From Acidobacteriota bacterium (GTDB taxonomy: Bacteria; Acidobacteriota; Thermoanaerobaculia; Multivoradales; Multivoraceae), in the NCBI GenBank assembly GCA_039026915.1, contig JBCCLJ010000007.1, forward strand, positions 3,651-67,650: a stretch of 64,000 bases of DNA, read 5' to 3'. The stretch's first letter is position 1. Each line of letters begins with the position of its first letter. The notes beneath the pieces are model-generated. The model had not been told where the DNA came from and searched no databases. It was given only the letters and a program-made list of their open reading frames with translations. Of the stretch, positions 51,856 through 64,000 are shown in pieces. The position numbers and the translations under genes were made by a program.

Positions 51856-52488
51856 ATGGCACTCAACCTCGCATACTCACGAAAACGTCACCAATCGAGT
51901 CTCGGTGAACTCTCCGACCGAGAGGTCTTGCTCGAAATCCAGAAGGACGACGAGCTCGCCCTCGACGAGCTGATCCGTCGCAAGACGGGGCCGCTGGTCC
52001 AGGTTGCCTACCGCGTGCTCAGCGACATGGAAGAGTCGCGCGACGTCGTGCAGATCGCTTTCGTGAGGATCTGGGAGAAGCGCTCGAGCTACGATCCGAA
52101 GTGGAGCCCGAACACCTGGATCTACCGGATCGTGACCAACCTCGCGATCGATCATCTGCGCTCGCAGCGCAGTCGCGACCGCATCGCCGAACCTTTCCGC
52201 CTCCACCTCGAGCACGTCGCCGCCGGGGCGCCGTCGACCGCCCGCCGCAGTGGCGAGCGTGAGATCGACGGGATCTTCGGTGAGCTGGTCGAGGTCCTCA
52301 CCGAAAAGCAGCGCGCCATCTTCGTCCTGCGCGAGCTCGAGGGGCTCTCGTCCGCAGAGGTCTCTGAGATCGTCGGTTGCAAAGAGTCCACCGTTCGCAA
52401 CCATCTCTTCAACGCTCGCAAACTTCTGCGCGCCGCGCTCGTCGAGCGCTACCCCGAGTATTCACCGCAATCCGGGGAGCTACGTTGA
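51856..52488 (+). CDS. ECF (sigma-70 family group IV) RNA polymerase sigma factor
   Basis: It has region 2 (VVQIAFVRIWEKRSSYDP, WIYRIVTNLAIDHLR) and region 4 (SAEVSEIVGCKESTVRNHLFNARKLLR). Confidence 0.8.
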   Translation: MALNLAYSRKRHQSSLGELSDREVLLEIQKDDELALDELIRRKTGPLVQVAYRVLSDMEESRDVVQIAFVRIWEKRSSYDPKWSPNTWIYRIVTNLAIDHLRSQRSRDRIAEPFRLHLEHVAAGAPSTARRSGEREIDGIFGELVEVLTEKQRAIFVLRELEGLSSAEVSEIVGCKESTVRNHLFNARKLLRAALVERYPEYSPQSGELR

Positions 52489-53057
52489 ACCGTTCCCCGC
52501 AGTGCGTCGCCTGCCCTGATTGGGAGGCGCTCGAGCGCTCCCGCGACGACGGCGCCGAAGGCGAAACTGCCTGGATGGACGCTCTCGAGCGTCGCCACGA
52601 GTGCGAAGCGTGCTTCGAAGCCGCGCTCGCGGTCGATCCGACGCTCCTCTTCCTCGATCTGCCGCCGGTGGAGACTTCGGAGGCGGAGATTGCTGCCATG
52701 CAGGAGCGCGTCGCCATCTCGAAACGCTTCTCCGAGTCGGTCGCCGAGACGCAGCCGGAGACCGAGGGCCGTCGAGCTCCGCGCTGGCTGGCCGCTGCCG
52801 CGGCGCTGGTCGTCATCGGTTTCGCCGGGCTCAACCAGCCCGTCGCGACTGTGGCCGACCTGAGTCCGGTCGAGACGGGTGAGGGTTTGACGCAAGCAGC
52901 GCTGCCCTCCGGAGCGACGCTTGGCGAGGGATCGGTGACGACCCTGGCGGAGCATCTCGAAGCGCTGCCCCTCGTCGAGGACGGCGACGTTCGCTACGAG
53001 GTGAGCGGAGGTTCTGCCGACTATGCCGTGCTGGTCTTCACGGGCGTCGATCTCTGA
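52485..53057 (+). CDS. Putative zinc-finger anti-sigma factor with one TM segment
   Basis: A TTG start overlaps the sigma-factor stop (TTGA). The N-terminus has CxxC and HxCxxC motifs (CVACPDW...RHECEAC), followed by a TM helix (WLAAAAALVVIGFAGL) and a periplasmic tail. This is the standard ECF sigma/anti-sigma arrangement. Confidence 0.55.
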   Translation: MNRSPQCVACPDWEALERSRDDGAEGETAWMDALERRHECEACFEAALAVDPTLLFLDLPPVETSEAEIAAMQERVAISKRFSESVAETQPETEGRRAPRWLAAAAALVVIGFAGLNQPVATVADLSPVETGEGLTQAALPSGATLGEGSVTTLAEHLEALPLVEDGDVRYEVSGGSADYAVLVFTGVDL

Positions 53058-53076
53058 GCCCGAGCGGCGGTCTTCG

Positions 53077-53823
53077 ATGATGTTTTCGGTTTCGAGATCC
53101 GTGCGTCCGGCGGTCCAGACGCTCCTCCTGTTGCTGACGTTCTGCCTTGGTGCGAGCGCGGCGGCTCAGGAAGAGGTCGAGACGCTGGTCCGGCTGGACT
53201 TCCAGCTTCGGCATCAGCCGGCTGATGACGTCATGACCGTGCTCCAGCCGCTGCTCTCCGGGCAGGGACGGGTCGAGATCGATCGTCAGACCCGGCGTGT
53301 CGTCGTTCGAGACCACCGCTCGAACATCGAACGTATCGTCGAGGGGCTCGAAGGATTCGACCATCCGGTGAGGTCGCTCGGATTCGACGTCATCCTGTTG
53401 CGGGCGACCCGATCGACCGACCCGGATCTGCGCAAGATCAACGAGCGCGTTCTGCCGAGCACCGTGGTCGAGAGCCTCGGTTTCATGCTGACGCAGAACC
53501 TGTACAGCCTGGTGGCGCGAACCGAGCTCGAAGGTCGCGAAGGCGAGCGCGTCACCACGCCTCTCGGTGAAGAGCGCGTCGTGCGCATCGCGGTGGGCAC
53601 CGTGCTCGAAGACGGCTATGTTGCGCGACTGCCGGTTCACTTTCAGCTTCATCGCAAGGAGCGCCCGGAGGCGAGTGGCTTCAATCAGGCCCTCAATCTG
53701 CACCTCGACAAGACCGTGGTCATCGCTCTGGCTTCAGACGCCGACGCCCAGAGCGGCTGGGCGATCGCCGTCACGTCACGGCAGCTCTCGGAGCTGACGC
53801 TGCCGCGGCCGGGCGAGGAGTAG
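53077..53823 (+). CDS. Secreted periplasmic protein with secretin-N/BON-like beta domains, putatively associated with the secretion cluster
   Basis: It has a signal peptide (MMFSVSRSVRPAVQTLLLLLTFCLGASAAAQ). TLVRLDFQLRHQPADDVMTVLQPLLSGQGRVEIDRQTRRVVVRDHRSNIERIVEGLEGFD resembles a secretin N-domain fold. It is the first gene of the gspF-gspE block. Confidence 0.4.
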   Translation: MMFSVSRSVRPAVQTLLLLLTFCLGASAAAQEEVETLVRLDFQLRHQPADDVMTVLQPLLSGQGRVEIDRQTRRVVVRDHRSNIERIVEGLEGFDHPVRSLGFDVILLRATRSTDPDLRKINERVLPSTVVESLGFMLTQNLYSLVARTELEGREGERVTTPLGEERVVRIAVGTVLEDGYVARLPVHFQLHRKERPEASGFNQALNLHLDKTVVIALASDADAQSGWAIAVTSRQLSELTLPRPGEE

Positions 53824-53827
53824 CCGA

Positions 53828-62334: not shown

Positions 62335-62831
62335 GCTGGCGCGCGCATCTTCGGCAGCGCCGCGCGTCTGGAGGTGCCGTGGCCTCGGCCGGCTACACGC
62401 TGGCCGAGCTGATGATGGTGTGCGCCATTCTGGTCACGCTGGCCGCGGTGACCTTCCCGGTGGCCAAGTTCACCCAGAAGCGCATCAAAGAAGCGGAGCT
62501 CAGGGCTCATCTACGCACGATGCGCAACGCGATCGACGAGTACAAGCGCTTCAGCGACGCCGGTCTCATCCCTTTGACGCTCGGCTCCGACGGCTATCCG
62601 AAGGACATGGAGACGTTGCTCGAGCCTCAGGACATCGTCGGTCAGATCGACCGCCAGATCCGTTTTCTGCGTCGTGTTCCTGTCGATCCGATGACCGGCG
62701 AGGCTGAGTGGGGGATGCGCTCGACGCAGGACGAGCCGGACTCCGAGAGCTGGGGCGGGGAGAATCTCTACGACGTCTACTCTCTGAGCGGCAGCGTCGG
62801 TCTGAACCGAGTGCCCTACTTCGAATGGTGA
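62331..62831 (+). CDS. GspG-like pseudopilin (second copy)
   Basis: It has the prepilin N-terminus ASAG|YTLAELMMVCAILVTLAAV and GspG-like core motifs (RFLRRVPVDPMTG, NLYDVYSLSG). A GTG start overlaps the secretin stop. Confidence 0.6.
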   Translation: MSWRAHLRQRRASGGAVASAGYTLAELMMVCAILVTLAAVTFPVAKFTQKRIKEAELRAHLRTMRNAIDEYKRFSDAGLIPLTLGSDGYPKDMETLLEPQDIVGQIDRQIRFLRRVPVDPMTGEAEWGMRSTQDEPDSESWGGENLYDVYSLSGSVGLNRVPYFEW

Positions 62832-62866
62832 CGGCGCCCTCTCGGCGAACGAATGGAGAGCTTTCG

Positions 62867-63316
62867 ATGAACCCGACCCCGTCACGCACGATCCGCGTCC
62901 AGACCACGGCGCAGAGCGGCTTCACACTGCTCGAGCTGATCATCGTGGTCTCGCTGATCGGCATTCTTGCGGCGATCGTGCTGCCGAACCTGATCGACAA
63001 GCCGACGCGAGCCAAGGAGGCCGTGCTCAAGCAGAACCTGCGGACGATGCGCGACGCGTTGGACCAGTTCTACGCCGACAAGGGCAAGTATCCAGGCGAT
63101 CTCCAGGAGCTGGTCGAGTCCAACTACCTGCGCTCGATGCCGCTCGACCCGATCACCGGCAGCCAGGAGACCTGGATCGCGGTCTACGAAGAAGCGGGCG
63201 AGGAAGAGAGCGAAGACTTCTACGAAGAAGGCGAGAGCGAGCCCGGAATTGTCGACGTGAAGTCGGGATCCGAGCTGGCCACCCTCAACGGTGAGGGTTT
63301 CTACAGCGAATGGTGA
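62867..63316 (+). CDS. gspG: Type II secretion major pseudopilin GspG
   Basis: AQSG|FTLLELIIVVSLIGILAAIVLPNL plus AKEAVLKQNLRTMRDALDQFYADKGKYP and YLRSMPLDPITG are GspG hallmarks. I set the start at the ATG at 62867, preceded by a GGAGAG Shine-Dalgarno. Confidence 0.8.
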   Translation: MNPTPSRTIRVQTTAQSGFTLLELIIVVSLIGILAAIVLPNLIDKPTRAKEAVLKQNLRTMRDALDQFYADKGKYPGDLQELVESNYLRSMPLDPITGSQETWIAVYEEAGEEESEDFYEEGESEPGIVDVKSGSELATLNGEGFYSEW

Positions 63317-64000
63317 CCCCCGCAGGCGGGCCGCGACGTCGCGTGGGAGAGGAGGGCTACAACCTCGTCGTCCTGACGCTGATCGTGCTCTTGATGAGCG
63401 TCGCTCTCTCGCTGGCGTTGCCGGCGTGGTCGGCTCAGGCCAAGCGCGAGAAGGAGCAGGAGCTGATCTTTCGCGGCCTGCAGTACGCGGAGGCGGTGCG
63501 GGTCTTTCAGGCTCGCCACGGTCGACTGCCGACGACGCTCGAAGAGCTGGTCGAGGTCGAGCCCCGCAGCATCCGTCAGCTCTTCCCAGAGCCGATGTCG
63601 GAGAACGGCAAGTGGGGACTGCTCGTGCAGTCTCAGACGCCGCGAGGCCAGGGGCGCGGCCGCCGCGGACGCGGGCGCGGTCAGCAGCCGAATCAGCAGG
63701 GGCAGGAGGGCGCCGCCCCTGGAGGAGGGGCGAACGCCGGTGCTGGCGGAGGAGAAGCTGGCGAGGCGGGTGCTCCCGGCGAGGGCGCACAGCCCGACGG
63801 GGGCGGCGCGCAAGCCGGCGGCCAGCAGTCCGGTGGGTCACAGGCCTTTCCCGAAGGCAATGCAGCGGTCAATCCCTTGCTCGGCGGTGGCGGTGGCAAC
63901 CGGATGAACGTCGTCAAAGTTCCGCCGAGTCAGGGCACCGAGGAAGGCTTCGGTCGGCGCAGCAACGTGACCGCTGGCCCGATCGTCGGCGTCTACAGCG
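63313..64000 (+). CDS. Minor pseudopilin (GspH/I/J/K-like) with a Gly/Gln/Ala-rich low-complexity region; 3' end truncated by the window
   Basis: My own translation from the GTG at 63313 (overlapping the gspG stop, GTGA) gives ...GEEG|YNLVVLTLIVLLMSVALSLALPAW..., a prepilin-type N-terminus. It continues open to the window end and is not in the ORF track because no stop is present. Confidence 0.5.
   Translation, partial: MTPAGGPRRRVGEEGYNLVVLTLIVLLMSVALSLALPAWSAQAKREKEQELIFRGLQYAEAVRVFQARHGRLPTTLEELVEVEPRSIRQLFPEPMSENGKWGLLVQSQTPRGQGRGRRGRGRGQQPNQQGQEGAAPGGGANAGAGGGEAGEAGAPGEGAQPDGGGAQAGGQQSGGSQAFPEGNAAVNPLLGGGGGNRMNVVKVPPSQGTEEGFGRRSNVTAGPIVGVYS

Follow-up and report, generated by a model that had tools for sequence, protein, structure and literature searches.

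Most work on type II secretion systems (T2SS) and type IV pili concerns Proteobacteria, in which they are clearly distinct machines, and the descent of one from the other is still argued from phylogenies. Denise et al. (2019) described 'generic' systems of the superfamily of type IV filaments (TFF) which fit neither the T2SS nor the type IVa pilus (T4aP) models, together with two atypical 'T2SS', one from Bacteroidetes that clusters with T4aP and a chimeric one from chlamydiae; the main text of that study mentions neither Acidobacteria nor a linkage to sigma factors (PMC6668835). Control of an adjacent secretin machine by an extracytoplasmic function (ECF) sigma factor is already known: in Pseudomonas aeruginosa the vreA-vreI-vreR genes (PUMA3) lie directly upstream of the Hxc T2SS and induce it, VreA being periplasmic and carrying an N-domain of the secretin/TonB type (PMC2729926), and ECF32 is linked to type III secretion system (T3SS) clusters, its conserved neighbors being T3SS genes and a two-component system (PMC7826278). 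The main text of the latter, an ECF classification paper, links no ECF group to T2SS or type IV pili. Here we describe a 13-gene locus at positions 51856-64000 of a 64,000-nucleotide stretch of DNA (hereafter the window) from an Acidobacteriota bacterium of the class Thermoanaerobaculia (contig JBCCLJ010000007.1 of assembly GCA_039026915.1), in which an ECF sigma/anti-sigma pair heads a secretin-containing machine with mixed T2SS and T4aP features. What is new is the combination: an in-operon ECF module, a class-wide promoter, an anti-sigma factor of the zinc-binding anti-sigma (ZAS) type with a periplasmic tail, a half-secretin, a lipoprotein secretin with tetratricopeptide repeats (TPR) and a cohesin-like domain, and GspG-like pilins on a PilMNO scaffold. 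Full-text literature searches combining Thermoanaerobaculia with secretion and pilus terms returned no description of the locus, and our verdict is that it is a lineage-specific, undescribed variant of the TFF superfamily.

The genes run from the ECF sigma factor through the anti-sigma factor, a secreted protein with a secretin N-domain (SecN), the platform (F), the ATPase (E), M, N, O, P and the secretin (D) to the pilin-like G1, G2 and G3, all on the plus strand (Table 1). This is the order from sigma factor to pilins listed in the sequence-only reading of the window, and it was confirmed by the listing of open reading frames (ORFs), by translation, by scans with Pfam and NCBIfam hidden Markov models (HMMs) and by structure matches. 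Distances between consecutive genes range from -32 nt (an overlap) to +73 nt; sigma and anti-sigma genes overlap by 4 nt, and 19 nt precede secN and 4 nt gspF. Terminator-like hairpins are no commoner in the locus than in shuffled sequence, and because the genes are tightly spaced and terminators not above chance, a single transcription unit is the simplest reading, which would make the locus one operon of ~12.6 kb between waaA and dut. Rfam and tRNA scans of the window gave no matches.

Table 1. Coordinates (window positions) and identification of the features of the machine locus, its upstream region and the second filament-related gene cluster.
Feature	Position	Strand	Basis or remark
Conserved CAGTATAAT element	51747-51755 (TATAAT box 51750-51755)	+	waaA-sigma divergent intergenic region
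Promoter P1, ECF-type	51810-51837	+	-35 TTGGAC, -10 CGTA(G); 19 nt 5' of sigma ATG
ECF (group IV) sigma-70 factor, 210 aa	51856-52488	+	Sigma70_r2, Sigma70_r4_2, Sigma70_ECF
Anti-sigma, single-pass, 190 aa	52485-53057	+	TTG start, overlaps sigma stop by 4 nt
SecN, secreted, 248 aa	53077-53823	+	PF03958 Secretin_N 37 bits, signal peptide
F, GspF/PilC-family inner-membrane platform, 403 aa	53828-55039	+	T2SSF 201 bits
Promoter P2, ECF-type, TGGACG-N16-CGTAG	55050-55076	+	73-bp gspF-gspE gap; exact motif match
E, GspE/PilB-family assembly ATPase, 550 aa	55113-56765	+	T2SSE 438 bits, MshEN 51 bits
M, cytoplasmic PilM-like actin-fold protein, 315 aa	56734-57681	+	Predicted fold; no transmembrane (TM) segment
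N, PilN-like bitopic protein, 322 aa	57684-58652	+	PF05137 24.4 bits, cutoff 22.8; TM 17-35
O, PilO/GspM-family bitopic protein, 203 aa	58649-59260	+	T2SSM_b 17.9, GspM_XpsM 23 bits, both sub-threshold
P, bitopic, 190 aa	59257-59829	+	TM 8-26, Pro/Lys-rich linker, conserved C-terminal beta-rich domain
D, predicted lipoprotein secretin, 834 aa	59830-62334	+	Secretin 144 bits, Secretin_N 38 bits
G1, pseudopilin, 166 aa, G/YTLAE	62331-62831	+	TIGR01710 GspG best, 28.9 bits (model 2-116 of 134)
G2, pseudopilin, 149 aa, G/FTLLE	62867-63316	+	TIGR01710 GspG best, 58.7 bits
G3, pilin-like, G/YNLVVL, no Glu at +5	63310->64000 (window end)	+	Prepilin-type N-terminus
GspG/PilA-like pilin	31001-31666	-	Upstream cluster
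M20 peptidase	29389-30870	-	Upstream cluster
Prepilin peptidase	28592-29377	-	Upstream cluster; E. coli GspO probe; A24_N_bact + Peptidase_A24
PAS histidine kinase	26791-28581	-	Upstream cluster
GspH/FimU-like minor pilin	25990-26688	-	Upstream cluster
PilW	24135-25703	-	Upstream cluster
PilX_N protein	23521-24387	-	Upstream cluster
PilY1-VWA protein	18501-22724	-	Upstream cluster; two FxLYD-domain proteins flank

A scan of one genome per species for PilM-like loci yielded 247 confirmed loci, 80 of which were compared (relatives are numbered with L where they must be told apart). The PilM-like protein has 320 homologues, and all that carry an organism name are from Acidobacteriota or from Thermoanaerobaculia metagenome-assembled genomes (MAGs); likewise, every lineage-naming title among the 80 loci is acidobacteriotal, mostly Thermoanaerobaculia with a few Holophagae/Holophagales, and the closest relative belongs to Ca. 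Multivoraceae, a Thermoanaerobaculia family. Searching these loci with the window proteins (tblastn) recovered the same order in 80/80, with all 12 genes searched for visible in the 40 loci that are long enough (the anti-sigma factor was assessed separately) and the ECF sigma gene directly upstream wherever the contig extends that far. The sequence-only reading had remarked that the order departs from the canonical C-D-E-F-G...M, and the F-E-M-N-O-P-D-G arrangement indeed proved to be a fixed property of all 80 loci, as did the presence of separate M and N genes in place of a fused L. Identities to the window proteins range from ~25-65% for SecN up to 75-89% for the ATPase. The flanks are kept as well: waaA, lpxK and lpxL are the upstream, divergent neighbors, and downstream the start of dut (dUTPase) overlaps the G3 stop codon in 44/44 loci (in L001, dut at 11430-11873 and G3 at 10444-11433), so closely that dut may be co-transcribed with the machine operon. 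Because order and flanks are kept across the class, we regard the locus as an old, vertically inherited chromosomal feature and not an island.

Evidence that the ECF pair belongs to the machine comes from its promoter region. Alignment of the 250 nt 5' of the sigma start in 60 loci gave a two-block motif, T(A/G)GAC(G/A)-N16-CGTA. It stands before the sigma gene in all 61 loci tested, 60 of which share a spacing of 16 while the spacer sequence varies; the fixed spacing around an unconserved spacer marks the motif as a promoter signature rather than the product of simple inheritance. The blocks presumably correspond to the AAC-type -35 and CGT-type -10 of ECF promoters; Bacillus SigW recognizes TGAAAC-N16-CGTA, and the locus sigma factor has SigW-type models near the top of its NCBIfam matches. 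Scanning 1.25 Mb of loci with a position weight matrix produced 56 matches on the plus strand, 53 of them directly 5' of the sigma gene, and none on the minus strand. Within the window, the strict motif has three matches against 0.30 expected, and the lineage-specific form TGGAC-N17-CGTAG also three, against 0.06 expected: the sigma site (P1), a site 5' of gspE (P2) and one at 15072-15098 (-). A strict match at 36423 (+) was dismissed as chance, its -35 reading AAGAC and its position being antisense within an esterase/fn3 gene, and the relaxed pattern T[AG][GA]AC-N17-CGT was discarded as unspecific (six window matches versus 5.6 expected). P2 recurs at the same position in the closest other species (L004) with a spacer differing from that of the window, and a relaxed motif precedes gspE in 8/69 loci, with none on the reverse complement. 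The sequence-only reading had suggested searching for the promoter 5' of secN; the motif was found 5' of the sigma gene, and occasional further copies stand 5' of secN in two and 5' of G1 in two loci of relatives (the corresponding reverse-complement matches number 0 and 1). The strand- and position-specific occurrence of the motif thus suggests an autoregulatory ECF-type promoter before the sigma gene, putatively recognized by the locus sigma factor itself. Because motif copies are in place and no room is left for other promoters, control of the machine by the ECF pair through autoregulated co-transcription is the likely arrangement, and the linkage proposed in the sequence-only reading is borne out by the invariable adjacency, by the promoter and by its second copy before the ATPase gene.

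Several further features of these upstream regions deserve mention. In most relatives (L005-L083) the annotated sigma ATG follows the CGTA box after only ~10 nt (ATGCTCGAGCTC...), so that the mRNA should be leaderless or nearly so, whereas the window and L004 have a leader of 16-19 nt with a Shine-Dalgarno sequence (in the window GGAGG at 51845-51849, between P1 and the sigma ATG). The CAGTATAAT element is found 5' of the ECF promoter in most of the related loci (most of L004-L083), in many of them ~10 nt from the waaA start codon and there reading TATACT on the opposite strand; its TATAAT box may be a housekeeping-sigma -10, shared or bidirectional, providing basal expression of one or both of the divergent units. 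Where the window lineage has P2, many relatives (L005, L007, L015, L023, L028, L032, L035 and others) carry directly 3' of the gspF stop a conserved CACTCTGCTG... followed by a GC-rich segment that resembles an inverted repeat by eye. The third motif copy of the window, at 15072-15098 (-), lies antisense in the 5' end of a SelA-like gene (by eye, +, ~14947-16389) and ~260 nt 5' of a coiled-coil ORF on the minus strand (14116-14811) and of the gene for a TPR protein (12765-13976), and may mark an extra regulon member; the ORF at 13973-14965 (-) downstream of it was set aside as apparently non-coding by composition and translation.

The sigma factor consists of regions 2 and 4 only and scores 94.5 bits against TIGR02937 (cutoff 42.9). 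It is 50-79% identical among relatives, its gene is always first in the cluster, and in most loci its stop is overlapped over 4 nt by the anti-sigma gene, so that a two-region sigma factor adjoins a one-TM anti-sigma factor as expected of an ECF module. The anti-sigma factor has an N-terminal Cys/His anti-sigma domain and one TM segment (residues 98-116), beyond which a periplasmic tail with a conserved C-terminus follows. Throughout the family an N-terminal CPDW is followed ~25 residues on by H(F/L)DxCxxCR and then by ADPLLVFRRLP, an amphipathic helix, the TM segment (WRRWAAAAVLA), a variable periplasmic linker and the C-terminal block RP.ARVYQ..G..LSVVMIVDE.LDV, whose conservation at the extreme C-terminus makes it the obvious candidate for a sensing or partner-binding element. 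The zinc-binding anti-sigma signature HxxxCxxC is present in 39 of 50 homologues, seven have Hx4CxxC and three are without ligands. In L031, L072 and L082 all Cys and His of the zinc motif are gone while the ADPL(L/M/F)(L/M)FR block and the C-terminal tail are kept. The protein gave a weak match to NF052375 ('anti-sigma factor') and none to Pfam, FecR included.

Directly after the anti-sigma gene stands secN. In the AlphaFold2 model of its product (mean predicted local distance difference test score, pLDDT, 88.3) a signal helix precedes a single N-domain of beta-alpha-beta-beta-alpha topology, after which comes a beta-rich domain of nine strands that is similar to the first half of a secretin core, so that the protein can be called a 'mini-secretin'. 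The only strong matches of this model in a Foldseek search of the PDB are whole secretins (InvG, GspD, XcpQ, PilQ and phage pIV; E 5e-8 to 1e-5, probability 1.0), at TM-scores of only ~0.3, and hhalign places SecN residues 31-207 weakly (E 0.003, probability 10%) on residues 242-452 of the locus secretin, that is on its N-domain and first core half. The SecN family numbers ~182 clusters at 50% identity (E<=1e-30), nearly all members being ~250 aa long among the 150 best listed, and word-based searches with SecN returned Thermoanaerobaculia-type sequences only. We read SecN as a truncated secretin paralogue that would stay periplasmic, where it could form an extra ring under the secretin or act as a partner of the anti-sigma factor, the latter being suggested by the position of its gene and by the analogy with VreA.

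The secretin itself is composed of several domains. Its signal peptide ends in the lipobox LAGC, followed by TPR (~40-120), an N0/STN-like domain (~165-245, by inspection) and one Secretin_N domain (255-313); the C-terminal half comprises the core (379-543), a conserved tail to ~602, a linker and a cohesin-like domain (691-786) that in the window protein scores 22.8 bits, just below the cutoff of 24.1. All 25 family members scanned contain Secretin and Secretin_N, 24 contain TPR, 18 Cohesin (best 2e-11), six FecR_C and two STN, the last two as weak matches, and AMIN was found in none of the 25. Secretins that are short and apparently without the cohesin extension occur in five lineages (L006, L012, L036, L078, L082). 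A lipobox-like Cys ends the signal peptide in 51/51 homologues, and the secretin is thus a predicted lipoprotein that is putatively self-piloting. The usual pilotins of T4aP and Tad systems are TPR lipoproteins (PilF/Tgl type), so that the lipidated, TPR-bearing N-terminus of the locus secretin looks like a fused pilotin. HxcQ of P. aeruginosa is a self-piloted liposecretin according to the passage of PMC12475490 that cites it. Neither a SecN-like half-secretin nor a TPR-cohesin liposecretin is described in the literature searched. Against curated models the secretin scores 160 bits with GspD (cutoff 351) and 111 bits with PilQ, both below cutoff.

The inner-membrane components are of mixed affinity. 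The platform scores higher with TIGR02120 GspF (328 bits, cutoff 424) than with the PilC models (273 and 257 bits), which are narrow Thermus- and Myxococcus-type equivalogs, and among E. coli proteins it prefers GspF (177 bits) to HofC (135 bits). The ATPase carries an N-terminal MshEN-type domain and the tetracysteine motif, and matches TIGR02533 GspE (541.7 bits, cutoff 630) and TIGR02538 PilB (535.2 bits) almost equally, both below cutoff; among PDB sequences, which are of unequal lengths, PilB of Myxococcus and Geobacter (421-423 bits) precede Vibrio GspE (358-366) and PilT (~100). MshEN domains of the type that binds cyclic di-GMP have the motif RLGxxLL..., which is not visible by eye in the ATPase N-terminus. 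M matched no Pfam or NCBIfam model, PilM included, but its AlphaFold2 model from 28 homologues (pLDDT 85.7) finds as best Foldseek matches experimental PilM structures from crystallography and cryo-EM (2ych from Thermus, 3jc8 from Myxococcus and 5eox from Pseudomonas; E 3e-16 to 2e-15), ahead of FtsA (1e-11) and the cytoplasmic EpsL/GspL domain (1e-10). The PilN-like protein carries the N-terminal peptide NLAARPF (family consensus LNLARRPF) where PilN has its PilM-binding peptide; it ends in a long, poorly conserved, charged, Pro/Ala-rich low-complexity tail that is unusual for the family, whose members range from 189 to 585 aa. In the O family, 25 members gave matches to PilO (PF04350) in 12 (best E 2.6e-7), to T2SSM_b in 12 and to T2SSM in three. 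A single N-terminal TM segment is present in each of the three bitopic proteins N, O and P, that of P being of the uncleaved type without a lipobox Cys. P has the conserved C-terminal block YLGxFGP..riAVF..G..i.N...G.v...KF.V..IGyESVdi.FvgFPD, yet neither Pfam in 25 members (PilP included) nor PDB sequences gave a match, and searching PDB sequences with profiles of the P, O and G3 families returned nothing meaningful beyond the pilin N-helix. Thus, where the sequence-only reading saw separate PilM, PilN, PilO and PilP units, the first three stand, by fold, by PF05137 and by family PilO matches, and the PilP label goes without HMM or PDB-sequence support; from position, topology and the C-terminal block we infer that P is a PilP/GspC-like connector to the secretin. 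The description of a split L component is correct, M having a PilM fold and no TM segment and N being a separate bitopic PilN-family protein.

The pilins of the operon had been called clearly GspG-type. GspG is indeed the best model for G1 and G2, as it is in at least four relatives, but at 29 and 59 bits against the TIGR01710 cutoff of 88.85 (and below cutoff in the relatives too) the wording was overstated. G2 also matches N_methyl (28 bits), T2SSG (19.3 bits, cutoff 21) and E. coli GspG better than PpdD (43.5 versus 34.7 bits); it is better conserved than the other two pilins and is the probable major subunit. G1 and G2 are paralogues (35% identity), both with Glu at +5 and with a C-terminal (Y/F)xEW after a P(L/V)DP(I/M)TG block resembling the GspG core, and a Cys pair beyond the N-terminal helix was found in 0/51 homologues of either. 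G3, cut by the window end, is 329 aa long and followed by dut in near-identical contigs of the Acidobacteriota MAG GCA_038748275.1. It resembles pilins in its N-terminal helix only and has no Pfam or NCBIfam match, the GspK model included; GspK, like G3, is without Glu at +5. The G3 tail is rich in Gly, Gln, Asn and Arg and of low complexity, which is unusual for pilins. In some relatives a second alignment segment of G3 gave the appearance of a 'fourth pilin', but no gene corresponds to it, dut following directly after G3.

A second cluster related to type IV filaments lies 20-33 kb upstream of the machine operon (18501-31666, -; Table 1); the sequence-only reading of the locus did not take it into account. 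It includes a pilin gene, genes for the GspH-like minor pilin, PilW and PilX_N at a distance of 26-30 kb upstream, a PilY1-VWA gene and a prepilin peptidase that could take the GspO role, for which the machine locus itself has no gene, but no motor, alignment or secretin genes, and the ECF motif was not found 5' of it. Exact-sequence look-ups of ORFs 18501-22724 and 35000-36541 (-) gave no match. Outside the operon, the 64-kb window contains no second ATPase, platform, PilMNO set or secretin. The cluster could belong to a separate T4aP or could provide the machine with tip pilins and the peptidase.

Compared with the T2SS of E. coli (gspC-O) and V. cholerae (eps), the locus shares a secretin, one tetracysteine ATPase, a GspF platform, cysteine-free GspG-like pseudopilins, a GspM/PilO-family protein, the gathering of machine genes in one operon and the lack of a retraction ATPase. 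It differs from them in having separate PilM-like and PilN-like proteins instead of GspL, in lacking GspH, I, J, K and O as well as a recognizable GspC (no PDZ domain, no HMM match), in a secretin with one N domain rather than N1-N3 but with added TPR and cohesin domains, and in its gene order (compared with E. coli gsp, canonical gspC-M). With the T4aP of Myxococcus, Pseudomonas and Thermus it has in common an unfused PilM-fold protein, a bitopic PilN with a conserved N-terminal peptide, PilO, the M-N-O-P-secretin order, a secretin of the N0 plus N1 type and a PilB-like ATPase. Unlike in T4aP, however, PilT and PilU are missing from locus and window, P is TM-anchored and unrecognized as a PilP lipoprotein, M is unrecognized by the PilM HMM, the secretin is predicted to be lipidated and has fused TPR and no AMIN, the pilins are GspG-like without a disulfide pair, and the ATPase and platform genes precede the alignment genes within the same operon. 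Most relatives likewise have no second ATPase that might be PilT within their 10-kb flanks; in L012 an ATPase match of 38% identity lies downstream of G3. For all four core genes the best-scoring TIGRFAMs are GspD, GspE, GspF and GspG, each below its cutoff (160/351, 542/630, 328/424 and 59/89 bits). Platform, secretin models, pilins and the single-operon layout without PilT lean towards T2SS, whereas the unfused PilM/PilN/PilO, the secretin with N0 and one N domain and its HofQ match lean towards T4aP, and the ATPase, alike to GspE and PilB, is undecided. Because T2SS and T4aP features are mixed, we file the locus in neither family and call it a hybrid TFF machine.

The Vre-Hxc system resembles the locus in that an ECF sigma factor and a membrane anti-sigma factor adjoin a T2SS-type machine with a small periplasmic N-domain protein and a liposecretin. 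Here, in contrast, sigma, anti-sigma, SecN and machine appear to form one transcription unit; the anti-sigma factor is short, of ZAS type and without a FecR match in Pfam; SecN combines Secretin_N with a half-secretin domain instead of STN with a TonB-C-like domain; and Hxc belongs to the canonical Gsp type, its L being fused. The likeness is best described as a functional analogy, homology not being demonstrated. Nor does the locus conform to cell-surface signaling of the FecIRA/VreAIR type, having no FecR anti-sigma factor and a SecN without STN, although some secretin homologues match these domains weakly. HrpL and other ECF32 members are comparable as dedicated ECF sigma factors conserved beside a secretin-containing export machine, in their case a T3SS; HrpL is not known to have a cognate anti-sigma factor. 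The 'generic' TFF systems share key components and mixed features with the locus, which adds to them the ECF module, SecN and the TPR-cohesin liposecretin.

How, then, might the machine operate? On balance, and with modest confidence, we favor an ECF-switched T2SS-like machine with a pseudopilus piston. The ECF sigma factor would be held at the inner membrane by the co-translated single-pass anti-sigma factor through its zinc-type cytoplasmic domain until an envelope or periplasmic cue releases it. Freed, it would transcribe from its own T(A/G)GAC-N17-CGTA promoter, in the window lineage also from the copy 5' of the ATPase gene, and all thirteen genes would be induced together with positive feedback. 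The GspE/PilB-type ATPase and GspF/PilC platform would then polymerize G2, G1 and the G3 subunit lacking Glu at +5, the unfused PilM-PilN-PilO complex and the bitopic P would link the platform to the outer membrane, the self-piloting, lipidated, TPR-bearing secretin would form the outer-membrane channel, SecN would add a periplasmic ring or partner the anti-sigma factor, and the pseudopilus would act as a piston exporting folded periplasmic proteins. The GspG-like pilins and the lack of a retraction ATPase in the locus make a T2SS-like output the most probable one. We consider it rather doubtful that the machine also monitors itself, the C-terminal tail of the anti-sigma factor docking by strand addition on SecN or on the N0 domain of the secretin. 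If so, assembly state, substrate load or secretin stress would be relayed directly to the ECF sigma factor, in a circuit like that of cell-surface signaling but made from secretin-derived parts instead of a TonB-dependent transducer.

Several observations weigh against a T2SS-like machine under ECF control. Every core component stays below its curated equivalog cutoff; PilM, PilN and PilO occur as separate proteins, as they do in T4aP; and none of the minor pseudopilins GspH-K is encoded, the locus having three pilin genes only and then dut. In BLAST against E. coli the secretin prefers HofQ (86 bits) to GspD (62 bits), and just one Secretin_N domain is recognized in it, where PilQ has a single N domain and GspD three; among PDB sequences the ATPase is no farther from PilB (423 bits) than from GspE (366 bits). 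On the regulatory side, a P2-type site is found in only ~12% of lineages, the window anti-sigma factor has HECEAC, that is HxCxxC with a shifted His, and co-transcription and the pairing of sigma factor with promoter are deduced from spacing and conservation. Lastly, the upstream T4aP-type set could work with the machine. This leads to the most serious alternative, a true T4aP core whose fiber is primed by the upstream minor pilins and PilY1, whose pilins are matured by the upstream peptidase and whose PilT is encoded elsewhere, the ECF pair controlling piliation for adhesion, motility or DNA uptake. The PilM fold of M, the above-threshold PilN match, the PilO matches in 12 of 25 O-family members, the PilB sequences at the top of the ATPase list and a secretin with N0, a single N domain and a TPR module as in T4aP pilotins all fit such a pilus. 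So does the presence in the window of PilW, PilX_N, PilY1, a GspH/FimU-like pilin, a further pilin and Peptidase_A24 without a second core set, T4aP systems being typically split over several loci (PMC6668835). Conversely, the Pfam models of PilM and PilP fail on M and P in the operon, whereas PilW, PilX and PilY1 upstream are recognized by Pfam, which indicates that the system is separate and divergent; GspG is the best match of the pilins in the operon, and these are without the Cys pair usual in T4a major pilins; the GspF and GspD models outscore those of PilC and PilQ; PilT is absent from locus and window and AMIN from the secretin; and no ECF motif precedes the upstream cluster. We therefore regard the pilus as a possible but distinctly less probable reading, and infer secretion rather than pilus formation.

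Two further explanations appear much less probable. The machine might export something else, as a DNA-uptake (competence) pseudopilus or as a secretin nozzle for exopolysaccharide, a function recently proposed for GspD/PilQ in myxobacteria and cyanobacteria. Slime secretion depends on secretins of the T2SS type (PMC12475490), the locus secretin finds its best E. coli match in the DNA-uptake secretin HofQ, the pilins match ComGC/ComGE weakly, and waaA, lpxK and lpxL next door are envelope-glycolipid genes. These Com and HofQ matches, however, amount to generic pilin and secretin similarity, the three neighbors are divergently transcribed housekeeping lipopolysaccharide genes, and ComEA, ComEC, DprA, a polysaccharide synthase and Wza-type genes were not seen in the locus or its conserved flanks, so that we hold either function to be improbable. 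It is more improbable still that the ECF pair merely adjoins the machine, regulating itself or unrelated genes while the machine uses other promoters. The conserved TATAAT element could give sigma-A-dependent read-through, and the motif copy at 15072-15098 (-) shows that the regulon may extend beyond the cluster. Yet adjacency and order are kept in every locus across the class although sigma identity is merely 50-60%, the 4-nt overlap and the 19-nt and 4-nt gaps leave no room for a promoter, terminators are not above chance, and a second ECF-type motif stands directly before gspE in both the window and L004, with different spacers.

For an ECF-switched T2SS-like machine the sharply defined promoter offers an experimental handle, since induction of the sigma factor should switch on the whole machine, and it provides a predicted regulon motif that can be searched for in complete genomes. 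Only 61 species of Acidobacteria had validly published names by 2021, and Thermoanaerobaculia is a largely uncultured class, of which the machine may well be a main protein-export route. As a class-wide hybrid, it constitutes a natural test case for asking which parts of such machines set secretion and which set pilus formation, and its interest lies mainly in the evolution of the TFF superfamily and in what it can tell about secretion in this class.

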